From Escherichia phage vB_EcoM_G4498: DNA of 64,000 nucleotides. Positions 24,356 to 31,977 of this stretch are shown one piece after another (the first letter of the stretch is position 1; the number at the start of each line of letters is the position of its first letter). The stretch lies in sequence record NC_054918.1; one strand, 5' to 3'. The position numbers were made by a program, and so were the translations under genes. The notes below the pieces were generated by a model. That model saw only the letters and a program-made list of their open reading frames with translations. It made no database searches and had not been told where the DNA came from.

Positions 24356-24408
24356 CCTCATGTTATGTCAGTAAGACTACTATAACACAACACGAGGGAC
24401 TTGTAAAC
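24356..24408 (-). promoter_or_regulatory. early promoter plus 5' leader cassette (GTTTAC -35, TATAGT -10, GAGGA SD), copy A
   Basis: Minus strand GTTTACAAGTCCCTCGTGTTGTGTTATAGTAGTCTTACTGACATAACATGAGG just upstream of the 96-aa ORF. Confidence 0.6.
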
Positions 24409-26465
24409 TACATCTTGAACTTTTTAGACATTCCGTTGATGTTAACCAAAGAAGCTAAGATTTGAGAAACTTCGTTTTCCTCTTCTTTTGATTCTTCTAC
24501 AAGGAATTGATTAAATCCAGCCATTGGACGAACTTCACCAGTTTCCATTAGATGGTCGCCATCATATACTGATTCTTCTAATTGTTCAGAAGGAGGAACG
24601 ATTGTACCTTCGATTAGATACTTGTTATAAGCAGTTTCTTTCATAAAGTAAGTACTTACTTTATTAATCTTCAGTAAAATTCCACGTGGTAGAATAACTT
24701 CAGCTTCTGACGGAAATCCTGATAAATGACCCGGAACGATAACTTTGATTCGCTCAGCTCCTTTAATTACCATACCCACGCTAGTTTCAGCATCTTCATT
24801 AGCATATGTAGAATGACTACCCATATGCATCAAATCTTCTGCATCAACGGAACCTTCTCCTTCACCAGAAAATACTGCGCCGGAATCATCTAGAGCCATA
24901 TAGTTTTTACCATGCTCACCGAAGATATTTGGTTTAAGCGATGTGGATACGAAGTTCTTGAAATAGAACATTTTATTTTCAATGTTATGACGCAAAGTTT
25001 TAAAGGTAACTTCTTGTCCACGGTAAAGTGTAGTTCCTGGAGGAAGAACTGAACCTTTAGCGAATGCAGAATCAAGCGTCTCAATATGTTTAATAGCTCG
25101 TTCCATATATTCTTCACGGGTAGAATCTGGTTTACCCAAAAGGAACGAGTTCATTTCAACATATGAATCTGCACAATAATCTTCAATTACATCAGATTCA
25201 GCTTGAGTTAATCCTTTTGGAGTTACTTCAGTGCTTGCGTATTCATATGCCTGAGCAGCAGATTCATTAATCAATTTATAAATGCCATTCATGACAAATT
25301 GAATAATAGCTGTCTTTTCATCTGGCGTAGCTTTAGAACCTTTAACCAAATCATTGATAATTTTCTTAATAACATCAAAGCTATTAGAAATATTAATATC
25401 AGCAAGATCGCTTAAAATTTTATCAGTCTTATAATCAAAGAATTCTTTATTCTTTAAATATTCTTGAGAACCTTGATATGTTATATCGCTCTGTAACTTG
25501 ATAGATGGATCACGTAAACGTGCATGGGCTAATGCAATATGATTTCGGAAGCTTTCGAGTTCATAATCACTAGATTTAAAACGAGAAGCGCTTCTCATAC
25601 CGCCTATAGCTCCTTTGCTGAAGTTTGAACCAATTTGAATAACGCCAGAGTTCATTGGTCCTTCTGCTTTATACACCGGAACTTTAGATTCAAACTCTTG
25701 ATATTTCTTAGCAGCGAAGCTATCACCCTGAAGTGAAGCATCAACAGTAGAATATTGAGCTTGTGCTGCTAATCGACGACTAATTTTAGTTTTCTGAATA
25801 ACAGCTTGGTCCGTGCGCTTATCATTTTCTAAAGCAATAGAAGCAGCAACAGCAACAGCTTTAGGAACAGCATTACCTGTTTTAACATCTACATAAACAT
25901 CACCAACCTTTGATTCAACTTTTGTGAATAACTCAGTTGAAATAGGAGGTACACCTGGAATGTCTTCTAAATTGGCATTTTTACGATAAACCATAATATA
26001 TGCGTACTTTTTATCATAATCCCAGATTTCCTTTAAAAGAACATATCGACCTGCTCCTTTAGTACGTACTAAACGGTCAGCAATAACTTGCATTTGACGA
26101 GCAGCGCCATTTGTTTTACTCTTTAGTACGCGGAATAAGCATGCATCAATTTTATACTGTTTCATTGTTTGAAGAGCAGTATCAAAAACAGCGTTAATGA
26201 CGCCAATTGGATTTCCACCCAAGTTTCTAAGTTTAACCAGTGATAATTTCTCGTTGACACCTATCATTACGATATGCATCATTTTATCGCCCGGCTTAAC
26301 GTTTTTATTTGTATCACCTCCAGAGGTGTATGTACAAAATCTAAATCCAGGAAGCACGCTTTCTTCGCCGGCTTGAATAGCAAAAATTTGAGGTATTTTA
26401 TGCTTAGGATTTAAGTTAACAACCGGCGCCGAAGCGCCGTCAAATAATTCTGTAATAAGTTCCAT
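24408..26465 (-). CDS. Alt-like ADP-ribosyltransferase paralogue (predicted capsid-packaged)
   Basis: 685 aa; N-terminus MELITELFDGAS; R-S-E ART signature (LYRGQ, YFKNFVSTSL, EVILPRG); ~75% identical to neighbouring Alt over first ~235 aa. Confidence 0.8.
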   Translation of the reverse strand: MELITELFDGASAPVVNLNPKHKIPQIFAIQAGEESVLPGFRFCTYTSGGDTNKNVKPGDKMMHIVMIGVNEKLSLVKLRNLGGNPIGVINAVFDTALQTMKQYKIDACLFRVLKSKTNGAARQMQVIADRLVRTKGAGRYVLLKEIWDYDKKYAYIMVYRKNANLEDIPGVPPISTELFTKVESKVGDVYVDVKTGNAVPKAVAVAASIALENDKRTDQAVIQKTKISRRLAAQAQYSTVDASLQGDSFAAKKYQEFESKVPVYKAEGPMNSGVIQIGSNFSKGAIGGMRSASRFKSSDYELESFRNHIALAHARLRDPSIKLQSDITYQGSQEYLKNKEFFDYKTDKILSDLADINISNSFDVIKKIINDLVKGSKATPDEKTAIIQFVMNGIYKLINESAAQAYEYASTEVTPKGLTQAESDVIEDYCADSYVEMNSFLLGKPDSTREEYMERAIKHIETLDSAFAKGSVLPPGTTLYRGQEVTFKTLRHNIENKMFYFKNFVSTSLKPNIFGEHGKNYMALDDSGAVFSGEGEGSVDAEDLMHMGSHSTYANEDAETSVGMVIKGAERIKVIVPGHLSGFPSEAEVILPRGILLKINKVSTYFMKETAYNKYLIEGTIVPPSEQLEESVYDGDHLMETGEVRPMAGFNQFLVEESKEEENEVSQILASLVNINGMSKKFKM

Positions 26466-26468
26466 GAT

Positions 26469-28517
26469 TTATCCTTGAACGAACTTGTAAGGCATGTTTG
26501 TAATATCTATGCAAGACGCAATAATTCCAAGAGATGATTCTACTTTCTGTTTAACATTTGATGAAACAAATGATGCAAAGTCAACTCTATCTTCTATATC
26601 ACCTGTCATTGTAACTACTTCGCCGGTTTCCATTAAACGGTCACCGTCATAAATTACTGATTCGGTGAGTTCTTCGGTGGTCATAACTTCAGCTTGAATA
26701 AGCTTGTTGTTAGTTTTGACTGTTCCATCATTGTAAGATGCATCAGTTATTTTATTAACTTTGACCATTAATCCACGTGGCAAAATGACTTCCATTTCAT
26801 TTGAAGGCGCTAAACTTCCACCGGGTAAAACAACATTGACTTTATCAGCCCCAGTAATAACCCATCCAATTCCGACTAAATTATCGCTAGAATTAACAAG
26901 CCCTTCATCATTTTTATCGATAGAAATGTTTAGACGCTTTTCATCTGGTAAAACACCAACAGCTGAATCAGTCATCCAAGTACCAAAAATGTTTGGATAT
27001 AATGATGTTGATACAAAATTTCTAAAATAAAAAACTCGATTTTTTACCATTGCTTCGTATATTGAAGGTAACATTCGTTGTGAACGATACAAAGTAATAC
27101 CTTTTGGTAATCGTTCACCATTTTTAAAGGCTGAATCTAAATTATCAATAGCTTTTTCTATGTCAGATGCTGTCAAAATACTTGTACGCTCATCTGGATT
27201 ATATAATCCCAAAAGAGCATTATTTATGTCTACATATCCTGAACCTACGTATTCACGAATTCCGCGTTTTTGTGCTGGTGTGTATTTAGATGAATCTTTA
27301 TTTTCGACTATAGGATGTAATGACCATCCAGCTGTAAGAGCATATCCACGTAATTCTCTTCGAATAATCTTTGTTTTTATTGCATTCCAAGAATTTTGTA
27401 CTAACTCATTTGCAGCATCTTGGTTTAAATGCGAATGTTTGTTAATATTTCTTTCAAACCAAGCACCTTTATATTTTTCTAAAGTATCATCGACGATAGA
27501 AGCAATAGTTTCTAAAGTTTTTATTGAAGTAATAGATTCTTTTCGTAATTTTTCTAAAGCTTTATTTTTTATTTCTGCATTAATAATGGATTCTTTATCT
27601 TCAGGAATTATAGAAGCTTCTCTGAATGCCATCCCAGCTGTAACACTGCTAAGAGCATTCTCTAGTGCAAATCCTGAAGTAGAAATTACCGTTAATTCAT
27701 TAGAATCAGAAATTAAAGGCGCATCAGCGGGTTTATTTAATTCTGCTGCTGAAGCCTCAAATTTTTGAAACATCGGTGTTTCAAATCTAGAAGATTCCAA
27801 TGACTGACTTTGTGCAATTGCTCTACGGGAAATTTTAACTTTAACGATTACAGCTTGGTCAGAACGTTTATCATTTTCTTGTGCAATAGATGCTGCAATT
27901 GCCTCATTTTTGGTTACTTGAGCTCCGGTATCTTTATTGATATAAACATCACCGACCTTCGATTCAACTTTAGTAAAGAGCTCGGTACTAATTTCCGGAA
28001 CTCCTGGAATGTCTTCTAGTGATACATTTTTGCGATGTATAAGAATATATGCATACTTTTTATCATAATCCCAGAGTTCCTTAAGAAGGACGTATCTGCC
28101 ACCTGAACGACTACGGATAAGTCTATCAGCAATAACTTGAATTTGTCGAGCTTGACCAGCGGTTTTAGACTTAAGAATACGAAGCATACAAGCATCAATT
28201 TTATACTGACGCATTGTTTGCATTGCAACAGTAAAAACTGAATTGATATAATTAATTGGGCTTGGACCAAGACCTTTTAATTTAGCAATTGAACCTTTAG
28301 CGGTTAATGTAAAAGGAACAATATGCATCATTTTATCGCCCATTTTTAAATCGCGATTAGTATCACCTCCAGATGTATAGGTACATAAACGAAAGCCTGG
28401 TTGTTCAATTGCATCATCAACATGAACTGAAAAAATTTGCGGTATTTTCTTCTTTGGATTTAAGTTTGTAATCGGAAGAGTAGTATCTTCGTCAAATAAT
28501 TCTGTAATAAGTTCCAT
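26469..28517 (-). CDS. alt: Alt ADP-ribosyltransferase (injected internal head protein)
   Basis: 682 aa from second ATG; MELITELFDEDTTLPITN...; ART motifs LYRSQ, YFRNFVSTSL, EVILPRG; next to ligase as in T4. Confidence 0.88.
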   Translation of the reverse strand: MELITELFDEDTTLPITNLNPKKKIPQIFSVHVDDAIEQPGFRLCTYTSGGDTNRDLKMGDKMMHIVPFTLTAKGSIAKLKGLGPSPINYINSVFTVAMQTMRQYKIDACMLRILKSKTAGQARQIQVIADRLIRSRSGGRYVLLKELWDYDKKYAYILIHRKNVSLEDIPGVPEISTELFTKVESKVGDVYINKDTGAQVTKNEAIAASIAQENDKRSDQAVIVKVKISRRAIAQSQSLESSRFETPMFQKFEASAAELNKPADAPLISDSNELTVISTSGFALENALSSVTAGMAFREASIIPEDKESIINAEIKNKALEKLRKESITSIKTLETIASIVDDTLEKYKGAWFERNINKHSHLNQDAANELVQNSWNAIKTKIIRRELRGYALTAGWSLHPIVENKDSSKYTPAQKRGIREYVGSGYVDINNALLGLYNPDERTSILTASDIEKAIDNLDSAFKNGERLPKGITLYRSQRMLPSIYEAMVKNRVFYFRNFVSTSLYPNIFGTWMTDSAVGVLPDEKRLNISIDKNDEGLVNSSDNLVGIGWVITGADKVNVVLPGGSLAPSNEMEVILPRGLMVKVNKITDASYNDGTVKTNNKLIQAEVMTTEELTESVIYDGDRLMETGEVVTMTGDIEDRVDFASFVSSNVKQKVESSLGIIASCIDITNMPYKFVQG

Positions 28518-28540
28518 CATAGCCTCTCTAGTGTTTATTC

Positions 28541-28569: not shown

Positions 28570-28758
28570 TTAGTAATCTAGTGGTAAGAGAGTACGATAT
28601 ATTTCAAACTTTGGTCCTTTTTCATAGGCATCAAATGTTTCTGTAAATTTATTATAAGCGTATGCATCTACAAATTCGAGAATGACTTGTGATACAGAAG
28701 TAGAAACATCTCCACCTTCTTTTTGAGCAATGACAATTGTTTCTAAGTAAGCTTTCAT
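28570..28758 (-). CDS. hypothetical small protein, translationally coupled to DNA ligase
   Basis: 62 aa; its ATG overlaps the ligase stop (ATGA). Confidence 0.55.
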   Translation of the reverse strand: MKAYLETIVIAQKEGGDVSTSVSQVILEFVDAYAYNKFTETFDAYEKGPKFEIYRTLLPLDY

Positions 28759-30218
28759 AAACCAGTTACCTCATGAAAATCACCAAATACATCCTCGAAT
28801 GTATTAGCTTTAGTTTTATCTTCACGTAAACGAATCGCAATCGGAAGAAATAATTTAACGTAATCAGTGCGGCCATCAGATTTTAACCAACCGTTGCATT
28901 CGCACTCTAGAATTTTTCCAATATAATAATTTTGGTTTTCCATAATGCGAGTACGGTCAAGTTCATGCGATTTTACACCGGCTTTATCTTTTAAGCCTGA
29001 ACCAGCATTTACCTTAATTTTTCCACACTCTGATTCAAGAATAAATCCACCCGCTTTAGTAGGGTCTTTACGGTGAGGATAAATTCCTACAATTTTTAAA
29101 TCAACATCAATTACTTCTTTAAATTTATAGAGATTTTTTGAACGAGCATTTTCCCACAATCCATCGGTATTTTTGAGAATAATACCTTCAAGACCTTGGT
29201 CAATATACTTTTTATAAATTACCTTAGCTTCATCTAGGTTATTTACTACCTGGTTTTCAATTAAAATTACTTTATCATAACCTGATGTCATTTGTTCTAG
29301 TTTAGAAAAACGTACATCATATTTCAAACGAAATGCAGGAAGACCGTATATTTCTACCAACGGGACATAATCCCAGACCTGAAACTTCATGCATTGAGCT
29401 TCTTTTTCAGAAATGGTTCCCTTTAAAGATTTATTGGCGATGCCATTAGATGCAGTACGTGATTCAGCTACTTCGGCGAATTCTTTAGCTTTACTAATTT
29501 CAGGATAAGCATCAAAAAGAAAATCTAGGCCTTCTGGCTCCTTTTCAACTTGCTCATGGTATACCAATTCGCCATCAATTAACACACCTTCTGGATGAAT
29601 CTGGCGAGCTTCTGCAGTCATTTTGATTAACTCTTCCTTAAGAAGATCTAATCCTAGATATTCATTACCAGCTCGTGATAAAAGACGAACATCATCTAAT
29701 TCATCACCTCTGACTTCAGCAAAACACCGAGCTCCATCAGCTTTTAACTGGGCAAAGGCTGGAAATTTGATATTCTTATTAATGCCTTTTTCATCATAAG
29801 AACTTGCAAGCATTTGAGGTTGTTCAGGAATTAAACCTGGCCAAACTTTGTTTGCAATAGATACTGAAGCACCGCATTCAAGGTCTCGCATCATCACCCG
29901 ACGCAAAACTTCAACATCATCTTTTTTACCGTCAGTAATATATCCAGTTAATTCCTCAATTGCCGCATTTCCAGTCAATTTCCGAGTAGCTAACGTGAAT
30001 TCAATGAAGTCAAGCATATCGGTAAGAGTCAACATTCCAAAACTCTGGGTAGCAATACCTGGTTTAGGCCATTTCTTGATATAATACTGTAACCCACGAG
30101 AATAAGTCAGACGATATACTCGTTTAAGCAATTCATTATCTTTATTCTTTTCAAGAATTGCTTGCTTCTGCTTAGTTGAACCAATAGATGCTATTTCGTT
30201 CAGAATTTTAAGAATCAT
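28755..30218 (-). CDS. 30: ATP-dependent DNA ligase
   Basis: 487 aa, same length as T4 ligase; adenylation lysine context (KADGARC). Confidence 0.95.
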   Translation of the reverse strand: MILKILNEIASIGSTKQKQAILEKNKDNELLKRVYRLTYSRGLQYYIKKWPKPGIATQSFGMLTLTDMLDFIEFTLATRKLTGNAAIEELTGYITDGKKDDVEVLRRVMMRDLECGASVSIANKVWPGLIPEQPQMLASSYDEKGINKNIKFPAFAQLKADGARCFAEVRGDELDDVRLLSRAGNEYLGLDLLKEELIKMTAEARQIHPEGVLIDGELVYHEQVEKEPEGLDFLFDAYPEISKAKEFAEVAESRTASNGIANKSLKGTISEKEAQCMKFQVWDYVPLVEIYGLPAFRLKYDVRFSKLEQMTSGYDKVILIENQVVNNLDEAKVIYKKYIDQGLEGIILKNTDGLWENARSKNLYKFKEVIDVDLKIVGIYPHRKDPTKAGGFILESECGKIKVNAGSGLKDKAGVKSHELDRTRIMENQNYYIGKILECECNGWLKSDGRTDYVKLFLPIAIRLREDKTKANTFEDVFGDFHEVTGL

Positions 30219-30484
30219 TGTTCATCCTTTAGAGTTTGGTTTACAGCTCTATTATAAATCAATTCATCATTAAGCTCAGTCAAAGACCTGTGGTACGTGG
30301 TTCTAACTTTATTTCCTTGCATCCAGTGCTTGACGTAAATGAAACCTTGCTCTACACATTTTTTAAAAATTCGTTCGTCTTTTTGAGCTCGGAATTCTGG
30401 ATTGCATCTAAAAAATTGATTTACGTGACCGTAATCACGTGTAGTATTACCTTCATTTTCATAAATAGTATGAACAACAAACAT
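30215..30484 (-). CDS. hypothetical protein
   Basis: 89 aa, ATG with AAGGAG 7 nt upstream. Confidence 0.65.
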   Translation of the reverse strand: MFVVHTIYENEGNTTRDYGHVNQFFRCNPEFRAQKDERIFKKCVEQGFIYVKHWMQGNKVRTTYHRSLTELNDELIYNRAVNQTLKDEQ

Positions 30485-31323
30485 TAGAATGCTCCTTGGA
30501 AAATATTATCACCACTAGTAGGTCTATTATACAAATACTCTATGCCACCAGGTTTAATATAGTTCCATGTCTGAAACGGATGTGTCTGATATGGATGATA
30601 TAGATGATTATAAGGATTAAATCCAGGAGTTCTCCAGGTAGTGTTCCAAGGAAAAGAATCGTTTTTGATCATCTTCTCAATTACATCTTTTATAGCTTTT
30701 TCACTATCAAAACTTTCTTTATTTTCCTTTGGTGAAAAAAGCTTATTTTCTACATCATTCCATGTATAAACTCGCTGTGCAGTTTTTGGAATATTGTCAC
30801 GCTCTCCTCGAGCCATCCAATAAACAGGAACATTTAATATTTCACTCGCGTGATCGCAGTGGTGAGCGAGATCGTCAATATAACAAATTACGTTATATTT
30901 CTCTTTTGCCTTTTTGAACAACTCTTCTTTTGAAGAATCATGACCACACATCAATACTTCTGAGAAGGCACCAGGAAAAAGAGCATTCAAATTAAATTGA
31001 CGATTCAGCAGAGCGTCAATAGAATCACCCAATGCTGTAACAGCTACAAAATTATAATCTTCTTTTAATTTGTTAATTACACACAGGGCATCTTTATATG
31101 GAGACAAGTAACGAATAAAATCTGAACGATTGTATTTTTCAATTAACTTGACGCCAAGTTCTTCATCACAATTAAAGAGTTTACCAGGAGAAATAAATTT
31201 CTCATCTTGGATCATTTTTAAAATATGTTCTAACGGAAGATTATATTTCTGAGCAAAATAAGGAAGGCCTGATTGCCAGCTTAAACATACTCCATCAATA
31301 TCAGTTAAAATAGTAGGCTTCAT
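30484..31323 (-). CDS. HAD-superfamily hydrolase-like protein (predicted phosphatase)
   Basis: 279 aa; N-terminal LTDIDGV (HAD motif I DxDG), later AVTALG and CYIDDLA matching HAD motifs II/IV. Confidence 0.7.
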   Translation of the reverse strand: MKPTILTDIDGVCLSWQSGLPYFAQKYNLPLEHILKMIQDEKFISPGKLFNCDEELGVKLIEKYNRSDFIRYLSPYKDALCVINKLKEDYNFVAVTALGDSIDALLNRQFNLNALFPGAFSEVLMCGHDSSKEELFKKAKEKYNVICYIDDLAHHCDHASEILNVPVYWMARGERDNIPKTAQRVYTWNDVENKLFSPKENKESFDSEKAIKDVIEKMIKNDSFPWNTTWRTPGFNPYNHLYHPYQTHPFQTWNYIKPGGIEYLYNRPTSGDNIFQGAF

Positions 31324-31778
31324 AGAGAGTCTCTTAATAGGTTTAACACATCAATAAATTCAGCTTCGGTTAATATTGTATCATCTTTTGTTAGACCACT
31401 AGCCATGCTGTGCTTCAAAACTTTTCCTTTCGAGGCGTGTAATGCATCACGAAAGCCCTTGTTTTGGATCGCTGCTTCAAAATATGCATTTGTGTATAAT
31501 TCTTTCCATGCTGGGGAGTATCTTGAAAACGGAACTCCAAGCCAGAAGAGGGTCCCACGGTCCTGAGCTCTAGCATAAGACCTTCCAGCTTGTTGGGCGG
31601 CAAGCCCGGATAACCCAAATATACGACGTTGTTGTTCAGCATTTTTCACCTTGCATCCTTGGAGGAATCCTTCAAGACCTCCGAATTGAATACCATCCAT
31701 GACGAAAGGCCATTGGGCGAAATTACTTAATGCACACGATGGCCATCTAAAATTGCTTCTAATCTCTAACTCAGACAT
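31320..31778 (-). CDS. NADAR (YbiA/DUF1768)-family protein
   Basis: Track ORF starts TTG at 31784; ATG at 31778. SNFAQWPFVMDGIQF...EGFLQGCKVK aligns by eye with E. coli YbiA SNFAAWPIKVDGKTW...EHYFQAQKF. Confidence 0.65.
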   Translation of the reverse strand: MSELEIRSNFRWPSCALSNFAQWPFVMDGIQFGGLEGFLQGCKVKNAEQQRRIFGLSGLAAQQAGRSYARAQDRGTLFWLGVPFSRYSPAWKELYTNAYFEAAIQNKGFRDALHASKGKVLKHSMASGLTKDDTILTEAEFIDVLNLLRDSL

Positions 31779-31977
31779 TTTCAATACTTATAATTTCAAC
31801 ATCAGCCCAATGACCATAGCAAGGAAGACGAAATTCAACTGGCCAGTTAGGGTCCTTTTCTAATATAATAGACTTAACTTGTGGTTCTTCATGTTCATCA
31901 GTATATGGATTTTTATCTGTTACTTTATATGTGACCTTAATGTACTGAATTCCAAAAATCTTATTAATTATATTCAT
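31771..31977 (-). CDS. hypothetical protein
   Basis: 68 aa, ATG start, overlaps neighbours by a few nt. Confidence 0.55.
   Translation of the reverse strand: MNIINKIFGIQYIKVTYKVTDKNPYTDEHEEPQVKSIILEKDPNWPVEFRLPCYGHWADVEIISIENV

Follow-up and report, generated by a model that had tools for sequence, protein, structure and literature searches.

Gene 30.3 (adfN) of Escherichia phage vB_EcoM_G4498 and the predicted HAD phosphatase gene 30.2 beside it: neighbours with probably separate roles

The T4 protein gp30.3 was placed in the NADAR superfamily in 2012. Work from 2024–2025 identified it as AdfN, for anti-DarT factor NADAR (Johannesman et al., 2025, PMC11825919): it is a DNA ADP-ribosylglycohydrolase that is specific for guanine and acts against the DarTG1 defence (PMC11825919, PMC11125620). 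The T4 enzyme has been characterized by genetics, by E36A and K43A mutagenesis and by an in vitro de-ADP-ribosylation assay (PMC11825919), and independent in vitro work found activity on guanine-ADPr and none on thymidine-ADPr (PMC11125620). AdfN from T4 does not relieve the toxicity of DarT1 in cells that are not infected (PMC11825919, PMC11125620) and is reported to need another T-even factor for full activity (PMC11825919). A histidine in the last strand, replacing Glu or Asp, is the mark of the gp30.3-type subfamily (PMC11125620), and an intact C-terminal helix, truncated and lost in the inactive RB69 allele, is required (PMC11825919). The NADAR half of the locus considered here is already among the better-understood phage counter-defence enzymes, and the main finding about it is already known. 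For gp30.2, one of roughly 100 T4 proteins whose genes have no assigned function, literature searches yielded no functional study and no nucleotidase assay.

The DNA analysed is a 64,000-nt stretch of Escherichia phage vB_EcoM_G4498 (NC_054918.1), hereafter the window, and all positions are those of this stretch. A preliminary description of it had proposed two neighbouring genes, HAD-phosphatase-like and NADAR, within 30484–31784; both open reading frames were found at the positions that it gave, on the minus strand. The features discussed below are as follows.

31771–31977, minus strand: homologue of T4 gene 30.4, 68 aa, whose stop overlaps the adfN ATG by 8 nt.
31320–31778, minus strand: adfN (T4 gene 30.3), predicted 152-aa NADAR-superfamily DNA (guanine) ADP-ribosylglycohydrolase of the gp30.3/His subfamily.
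31320–31323, minus strand: ATGA stop/start overlap of 30.3 and 30.2, read directly from the sequence.
30484–31323, minus strand: gene 30.2 open reading frame, 279 aa.
30724–31323, minus strand: residues 1–200 of gp30.2, HAD Rossmannoid core with a helical C1-type cap (about residues 16–86).
31294–31302, minus strand: gp30.2 motif I, D8/D10.
31036–31038, minus strand: gp30.2 motif II, T96.
30928–30930, minus strand: gp30.2 motif III, K132.
30871–30876, minus strand: gp30.2 motif IV, D150/D151.
30484–30723, minus strand: residues 201–279 of gp30.2 and the stop codon, variable tail.
30215–30484, minus strand: gene 30.1, DUF3045, 89 aa (PF11243, E = 2.9e-64).
28755–30218, minus strand: gene 30, ATP-dependent DNA ligase, as annotated in near-identical phages and in T4.

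Genes overlap at every junction of this chain (30.4/30.3, 30.3/30.2, 30.2/30.1 and 30.1/30). The 30.2 stop and the 30.1 ATG overlap in the sequence TAATG, and a weak AGAGA purine tract lies 6–7 nt upstream of the 30.2 ATG. The ATGA overlap from which translational coupling of 30.3 and 30.2 had been proposed is present, but since all junctions from 30.4 to 30 overlap, it is a generic property of the chain and is not specific to this pair. A consensus scan for promoters and terminators found such sites to be no commoner than in shuffled sequence and is thus uninformative on operon structure.

The product of 30.3 is identical to T4 gp30.3 at 149 of 152 residues (98%) in an end-to-end alignment, the three substitutions (A47V, H114Q and M125I) being conservative, and the two proteins share their length, residues E36, K43 and H123, and the position of their genes between 30.4 and 30.2. 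In the program-made list the frame opens at a TTG (31320–31784); T4 and a 99.9%-identical phage are annotated with the ATG at 31778 as the start, giving 152 residues. The catalytic residues E36 (31671–31673) and K43 (31650–31652) belong to an N-terminal E..Q..K motif, in a region that aligns with SEHYFQAQK of YbiA, and are invariant and at least 90% conserved, respectively, among 51 homologues of 29–57% identity. The subfamily histidine, H123 (31410–31412), lies in the last strand and is invariant in the homologues, and the C-terminal helix is full length (residues 140–153 in the model of the 154-aa open reading frame). From the identity to T4, the full length and the intact E36, K43 and H123 we infer that the vB_EcoM_G4498 allele has AdfN activity, which predicts DarTG1 resistance of this phage and nothing more. 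Host DarT1 would ADP-ribosylate guanines in the replicating phage DNA, and AdfN would hydrolyse the N-glycosidic bond between guanine and ADP-ribose, releasing ADP-ribose; its removal would restore replication and make the phage resistant to DarTG1, as has been shown for the T4 protein. That the NADAR enzyme might reverse ADP-ribosylation and counter DarT-type defences had been anticipated in the preliminary description, and is established experimentally for the 98%-identical T4 AdfN (PMC11825919, PMC11125620). Its statement that the function appears unassigned is therefore incorrect for 30.3, and holds for 30.2 only.

At the level of family models, gp30.3 matches PF08010 (Phage_30_3; E = 1.7e-69, 232 bits, gathering cut-off 36) and gives no match to the NADAR domain PF08719 at E ≤ 1; unlike the YbiA/PF08719 family, it falls below the threshold of the latter and is covered by a separate model. 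The last strand carries Glu in E. coli YbiA and Asp in DarT1-linked NADARs of the PF08719 family, whereas gp30.3 has His, and the N-terminal extension of the DarG1-type NADAR antitoxins (Schuller et al., 2023) is absent from gp30.3. The likeness to YbiA, initially seen by eye, is real yet weak in sequence: YbiA (2b3w) was the sole match in a single-sequence search of the PDB (E = 1.3) and the best match of a ten-sequence profile (E = 0.054). PF08719 is also matched by 10 of 57 multi-domain PF08010 proteins at E ≤ 1e-3; the five scanned individually scored about 18–19 bits against it, under the gathering score. The fold adopted by gp30.3 is exclusively that of NADAR and, by fold, catalytic residues and profile chaining, gp30.3 is a NADAR/YbiA-superfamily enzyme.

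In the 279-aa protein, the strings TDIDGV (residues 7–12), AVTALG (94–99) and YIDDLA (148–153), previously pointed out as HAD motifs, are present and do fall on such motifs. Across 33 homologues, the most distant with 35% identity, residues D8, D10, V12, T96, K132, D150 and D151 are either invariant or conserved in at least 90%, W16, eight residues past the nucleophile, is invariant, and the protein has a Rossmannoid HAD core fold. At E ≤ 1 it matches no Pfam and no NCBIfam family, PF06941 and the curated HAD profiles included, its sole family match being PHROG 420, labelled 'unknown function'. The profile check suggested in the preliminary description thus gave no match to PF08719 for gp30.3 or to HAD models for gp30.2, an outcome that, taken by the letter, it had named as speaking against both assignments; the catalytic residues and the fold are kept, however, and together with profile chaining they place both proteins in their superfamilies despite the missing matches. 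On these grounds gp30.2 is a phosphatase-like enzyme of the HAD superfamily whose catalytic set is intact and which is apparently active. Its fold and motifs suggest an Mg2+-dependent phosphomonoesterase, in which D8 would act as the nucleophile and D10 as the general acid/base; the phosphate would be held by T96 and K132, and the metal bound by D150 and D151.

Indications of the substrate come from the NT5C nucleotidases, which are among the nearest sequence and structure matches for gp30.2. The gp30.2 family profile had a single match in the PDB, the 5'(3')-deoxyribonucleotidase 2jao (E = 0.099), in which DxDGVxxx[W/F]xSGL is aligned, and an hhalign comparison with PF06941-positive NT5C domains gave E = 2.6e-5 and a probability of 75% over motifs I–II only; these matches are sub-threshold and cover just motifs I–II and the cap, in the N-terminal half. 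Several structural neighbours of gp30.2 in BFVD are phage proteins named 5' nucleotidase. The HAD core, a small helical cap and the motif-I context are common to gp30.2 and NT5C (PF06941; human mdN/cdN; PDB 2jao, 6g2n and 3bwv), whereas gp30.2 has a longer cap, an extra tail of about 80 residues and no PF06941 match. The 3'-phosphatase domain of T4 Pnkp (PDB 1ltq and 5uj0), in contrast, is capless and acts on nucleic-acid 3' ends; gp30.2 has a C1 cap that would cover the site, pointing to a small substrate. We consider gp30.2 to be probably an NT5C-like, nucleotide-directed phosphatase and, since its motif-I signature and best profile matches are NT5C-like, the substrate would most probably be a nucleoside monophosphate or a similar sugar phosphate. 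Knowledge of this substrate would extend the known phage nucleotide or ADP-ribose metabolism by one step.

A published T4 transposon screen, HIDEN-SEQ (a single preprint with one DarTG1 allele, used here through its supplementary tables), distinguishes the two genes. On DarTG1 hosts insertions in 30.3 are lost (log2FC −7.25) and those in 30.2 are neutral (log2FC −0.12, p = 0.61), the only other significant gene being 30.4 (log2FC −1.79, padj 0.014). The value for 30.2 on M9 versus LB is −0.10, and on K-12 insertions were recovered at 72 of its 72 TA sites; 30.2 is non-essential, whereas the ligase gene is essential. No 30.2 phenotype was therefore seen in the screen conditions examined (DarTG1, M9 versus LB, and K-12), and redundancy could mask a contribution on DarTG1. 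As the genes abut, gp30.2 was an attractive candidate for the T-even factor that boosts AdfN, but was dropped as the leading idea given the neutrality of its insertions on DarTG1; gene 30.4, whose stop overlaps the adfN start and whose product has no Pfam match, is a better lead for such a helper. The silence of 30.2 in the screen and the lack of a curated HAD profile match would also fit a HAD-fold protein without catalytic activity that serves in binding or as a scaffold, an explanation that we find hardly credible, as the conservation of the catalytic residues of motifs I–IV down to 35% identity is not expected of a pseudo-enzyme.

The explanation that we favour, and hold with good but not full confidence, is that 30.3 is adfN and 30.2 encodes a HAD phosphomonoesterase, both being early T4-type genes of one overlapping chain with separate jobs. 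Gene 30.2 would then be dispensable for the phage and for the anti-DarTG1 role of AdfN, and tied genomically to the ligase rather than to NADAR. Of 77 viral loci, 71 have a DNA ligase gene downstream of the 30.2 homologue, and in T4-like phages no gene is linked to 30.2 more consistently than ligase gene 30. A NADAR gene was found within 4 kb of the 30.2 homologue in 36 of the 77 phage loci, abutting it in 22, while at least 12 T4-like contigs with 30.2 have their NADAR about 55–60 kb away; 30.4 co-occurs only with an abutting adfN (14 of 77 loci). Among 80 other gp30.3-type NADAR loci, a gp30.2-like or NT5C-like gene was detectable within 3 kb in 13, 11 of which belong to T4-like phages. The pairing of 30.2 and NADAR is not conserved across T4-like phages.

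The preliminary description had read the two genes as a functional module. In such a module gp30.2 would dephosphorylate an ADP-ribose-derived product, for example ADP-ribose-1''-phosphate, or AMP or ribose-5-phosphate that the phage Nudix enzyme NudE forms from the released ADP-ribose, and together with AdfN would clear adducts and breakdown products. The ATGA overlap, the 22 loci in which the genes abut and the reported dependence of T4 AdfN on an extra T-even factor (PMC11825919) speak for this arrangement, which we nevertheless regard as unlikely: insertions in 30.2 cost no fitness on DarTG1, about half of the 30.2-bearing phages lack the pairing and have their NADAR elsewhere, and no phosphatase step is chemically required because NADAR hydrolysis leaves intact DNA and free ADP-ribose. 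The early identification of one HAD and one NADAR enzyme thus stands, but their union in a joint module is not supported, given the different behaviour of 30.2 and 30.3 on DarTG1 and the inconstant pairing.

HAD 5'-nucleotidases coupled to ADP-ribosylglycohydrolases have been described, and further processing of the released ADP-ribose was proposed (Iyer et al., 2022, PMC9503650); to this class belong NADAR–NT5C fusions and ARH–phosphatase–NT5C neighbourhoods of Bacteroidales, with the same two folds that are adjacent here. Proteins in which gp30.3-type NADAR is fused to NT5C (PF08010 and PF06941; P0135, P0140, L079 and L080) occur in gut Bacteroidales, including Hallella and Prevotellamassilia (P0135, L079 and L080), and the NT5C recurs, at 99% identity, at locus L082, behind an NrtR-Nudix gene and a gene for ARH-phosphatase-ARH. 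Rare as they are, these fusions indicate that gp30.3-type NADARs can have phosphatases of this kind as partners, and they may point to a link between 30.2 and 30.3. On the other hand, a HAD-like domain is present in only about 4 of the best 150 gp30.3-type representatives, the HAD halves of the fusions went undetected at E ≤ 10 in a gp30.2 family HMM search, and gp30.2 is linked to the fused NT5C domains by profile–profile comparison only. The fusions also differ in being bacterial single polypeptides, with a bona fide PF06941 domain just remotely similar to gp30.2, and are accompanied by DSP-type phosphatases and Nudix regulators, which T4 lacks at the 30.2/30.3 locus. The paper on NARP3 has no bearing on this locus.

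Also unlikely is that gp30.2 is a dedicated phosphatase for an ADP-ribose- or NAD-derived small molecule, so that the T-even phages would clear ADP-ribose by a pathway with a second arm that does not depend on DarTG1, with ADP-ribose-1''-phosphate or NudE-made AMP and ribose-5-phosphate as candidate substrates. Its role would then be visible only on hosts with other ADP-ribosylating or NAD-consuming defences, and the NADAR–NT5C fusions of gut Bacteroidales would be a fused form of the same two-step pathway.

gp30.2, a catalytically intact predicted phosphatase, is kept beside the ligase in very distant T4-like phages. As a ligase-associated enzyme it might take away AMP, the product of ligation that pushes the reaction backwards, or clean 3'-phosphate ends like the HAD domain of T4 Pnkp, and its tail might bring it to the replisome; we give this little chance. 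The 71 loci with the ligase directly downstream include those of distant Acinetobacter, Aeromonas and Vibrio-type T4-like phages, but synteny alone is weak since T4-like genomes are strongly collinear, the closed C1 cap speaks against DNA-end substrates, and the essential ligase is paired with a non-essential gene.

The tail itself comprises one predicted helix (residues 205–220) and is otherwise predicted to be disordered, with pLDDT values of 40–59 from about residue 200 save for one block at 86 (residues 211–220). At about residues 259–269 it carries G-G-I-E-Y-L-Y-N-R-P-T, and the motif G(T/G)G-IEY(L/W)-xx-(Q/R)PT recurs in enterobacterial homologues. Its IEYLY resembles LDFLF, by which the ligase binds the gp45 sliding clamp, a resemblance that would favour a role with the ligase. 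A clamp-binding function is not supported: the motif does not co-vary with that of the ligase across phages, its fifth position is non-aromatic in most homologues, the close T4 relatives L004 and L005 keep the ligase LDFLF yet differ in the tail sequence, many homologues are tailless, ending near residue 200–230, and a window this large would, by our estimate, hold the pattern about once by chance.

No meaning has been demonstrated for the nearness of the pair to alt, to which significance had also been attached. What Alt modifies is arginine in host proteins, whereas AdfN strips the ADP-ribose that host DarT1 places on DNA guanine.

The two overlapping genes described at this locus are both present, and the observation is confirmed. 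The 2.2 kb around them share 99.9% identity with Escherichia phage APTC-EC-2A and 98% with T4-type phages, and match 658 phage records, nearly all of Tequatrovirus. The minus-strand order is that of T4 (alt, alt.1, 30 encoding DNA ligase, 30.1, 30.2, 30.3, 30.4 and onward), and the two products are identical to the T4 proteins at 274 of 279 (gp30.2) and 149 of 152 residues (gp30.3); the two reading frames are therefore T4 genes 30.2 and 30.3. The mechanical reading frame of 30.3 begins at TTG 31784, while the annotated start is ATG 31778, giving 152 aa.

Genes and junctions of the locus:
31771-31977, minus strand: homologue of T4 gene 30.4, 68 aa; its stop and the adfN start share 8 nt
31320-31778, minus strand: gene 30.3 (adfN), NADAR superfamily
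30484-31323, minus strand: gene 30.2, HAD-phosphatase-like, 279 aa
30.4/30.3 junction, minus strand: 8-nt overlap ATGTCTGA, read from the sequence
30.3 stop/30.2 start, minus strand: overlap ATGA, read from the sequence
30.2/30.1 junction, minus strand: overlap TAATG, read from the sequence
30.1/30 junction, minus strand: 4-nt overlap, from ORF coordinates

Since the neighbouring junctions overlap too, overlap is a trait of the whole densely packed early-gene chain, and that between 30.3 and 30.2 is no mark of a special gene pair. Within adfN, a 75-aa ORF in another frame (31415-31642, minus strand) is the intact counterpart of T4 gene 30.3', annotated as 'internal translation, in a different reading frame'. 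Farther along the minus strand lie two tandem full-length Alt-type ADP-ribosyltransferase genes (about 24408-26465 and 26469-28520), the upstream one annotated as NAD(+)--arginine ADP-ribosyltransferase in a near-identical phage; in T4 its place is taken by small ORFs only, alt.-1 to alt.-3.

The role of gene 30.3 is already published, as is the main content on this locus. In Pfam, gp30.3 matched PF08010 ('Phage_30_3', E = 1.7e-69) and not PF08719, the NADAR model named in the preliminary description. Against PDB sequences, the single protein matched only E. coli YbiA (E = 1.3), with LSNFAQWPFVMDGIQFGGLEGFLQGCK paired with FSNFAAWPIKVDGKTWPTSEHYFQAQK, and a ten-sequence profile again placed YbiA first (E = 0.054). 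An exhaustive profile search gave 1,450 gp30.3-type cluster representatives; across 51 diverse ones, Glu36 and His123 are invariant and Lys43 is at least 90% conserved. In the literature, gp30.3 proteins are recognised as a NADAR subfamily with a last-strand histidine (de Souza and Aravind 2012, cited in PMC11125620). T4 gp30.3 removes ADP-ribose from guanine, not thymidine, in vitro (PMC11125620). Johannesman et al. 2025 (PMC11825919) named it AdfN, and reported that it de-ADP-ribosylates DNA, is necessary and sufficient for T-even resistance to the DNA-ADP-ribosylating defence DarTG1, and is impaired by E36A, K43A and an RB69-like C-terminal truncation. HIDEN-SEQ, an independent T4 transposon screen, gave 30.3 a log2FC of -7.25 on DarTG1 (bioRxiv 10.1101/2025.11.20.689424). 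The earlier guess that this gene reverses ADP-ribosylation and counters DarT-type defence was thus correct. In the mechanism shown for T4, DarT1 ADP-ribosylates guanine in phage DNA and AdfN hydrolyses the adduct via Glu36 and Lys43, allowing replication to resume; 98% identity and an intact protein suggest that the same holds in vB_EcoM_G4498.

The product of gene 30.4 had no Pfam match. The gene was present only where adfN abuts it, in 14 of the 77 IMG/VR loci encoding a gp30.2 homologue that formed the synteny set. It was the only other significant DarTG1 gene in HIDEN-SEQ (log2FC -1.79, padj 0.014; bioRxiv 10.1101/2025.11.20.689424), and AdfN reportedly needs a T-even factor (Johannesman et al. 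2025, PMC11825919). The effect of 30.4 is either polar or translational coupling on adfN, or 30.4 is a candidate for that factor.

For gp30.2, no Pfam or NCBIfam model matched at E <= 1, and its PHROGs family (PHROG 420) is of 'unknown function'. The 100 homologues listed come only from T4-like phages or metagenomes, and keep the first ~200 residues, with the tail variable or missing. Among 33 homologues, down to 35% identity, Asp8, Asp10, Trp16 and Lys132 are invariant and Thr96, Asp150 and Asp151 at least 90% conserved; Asp8, Asp10, Thr96, Lys132, Asp150 and Asp151 correspond to HAD motifs I-IV. In the AlphaFold model, confidence is high for residues 1-190 and mostly low from about residue 200, apart from one predicted helix (205-220). 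Curated models aside, the evidence for a HAD enzyme is strong. Several leads point toward the 5'(3')-deoxyribonucleotidase (NT5C, PF06941) branch: the family profile matched only 2jao in the PDB (E = 0.099, through DxDGVlxxWxSGL), hhalign against PF06941-positive domains gave E = 2.6e-5, and several BFVD neighbours bear the source name 5' nucleotidase. As all fall below the curated threshold, the protein is termed NT5C-like and not a member. By the established HAD cap classification, the helical cap inserted after motif I would imply a small-molecule substrate for gp30.2. We infer an Asp-nucleophile, Mg2+-dependent phosphomonoesterase, probably acting on a small, nucleotide-like substrate. It is legitimately an unassigned enzyme, yet nothing surprising about it was found.

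One cluster of homologues (P0037, 302 aa) joins gp30.2 to a PF11243 (DUF3045, gp30.1) domain in one polypeptide, pointing to occasional fusion of 30.2 with 30.1 or to read-through, or possibly to an assembly or frameshift artefact. The gp30.2 tail carries IEYLY (residues 261-265; 30529-30543), the only match to [LIVM][DE][FYW][LIM][FYW] among window ORFs of at least 50 aa from the first Met besides the ligase (28755-30218), whose residues 231-235 keep LDFLF, the motif published as binding the gp45 clamp. IEYLY and LDFLF show no co-variation across the phages compared, so a shared clamp-binding role is unsupported.

The preliminary interpretation is partly supported, its proposed phosphatase-NADAR module having drawn a no, or a not necessarily, from genetics, synteny and reverse search. 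T4 30.2 is non-essential (72 of 72 TA sites disrupted; HIDEN-SEQ supplementary tables), and its disruption is neutral both on DarTG1 (log2FC -0.12, p = 0.61) and when M9 is compared with LB (-0.10); only 30.3 and 30.4 are significant on the DarTG1 sheet (bioRxiv 10.1101/2025.11.20.689424). We infer for 30.2 a physiological role other than DarTG1 escape. DNA ligase lies just downstream of the gp30.2 homologue in 71 of the 77 loci, and a gp30.3-type NADAR within 4 kb upstream in 36, abutting in 22. In the reverse search, made with the NADAR alignment, just 13 of 80 NADAR loci had a gene resembling gp30.2 or NT5C within 3 kb. At least 12 of the T4-like genomes without an adjacent NADAR carry it about 55-60 kb off, amid unrelated small ORFs. 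Many T4-like phages have this distant NADAR amid small hypothetical ORFs close to tRNA-like or nrd genes (loci L099, L100, L107, L126, L134, L136, L139, L143, L152, L154 and L156; compare L016-L073), so that the gene has either changed place or been acquired independently in genomes that are otherwise collinear.

That 30.2 and 30.3 form a true functional module is improbable; in its favour, HAD nucleotidase-like enzymes recur beside ADP-ribose glycohydrolases, as seen in Bacteroidales fusions and neighbourhoods. Of 57 multi-domain gp30.3-type proteins, two contain an NT5C domain (PF06941), and the C-terminus is HAD-like in one or two others. A genome scan assigned the NADAR-NT5C fusions to Hallella faecis and Prevotellamassilia timonensis, both gut Bacteroidales, in which the fusion follows a gene for a DSP-type phosphatase. 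A stand-alone NT5C, 99% identical to the fused one, directly follows an NrtR-type Nudix regulator and an ADP-ribosylglycohydrolase-phosphatase-ADP-ribosylglycohydrolase (ARH-DSP-ARH) gene in another Bacteroidales MAG.

Bacteroidales loci from the database scans:
L080: 4926-5933
L079: 51-890
L082: 1405-5465
L083: 3518-5501

It appears that the NT5C unit has been shuffled among modules for ADP-ribose removal, some ARH-based and others NADAR-based. Iyer et al. 2022 (PMC9503650) described a class of neighbourhoods for ADP-ribose removal that these fit, with a HAD 5'-nucleotidase among the coupled phosphatases. In another genome, a stand-alone NADAR follows a microbial-PARG-domain protein.
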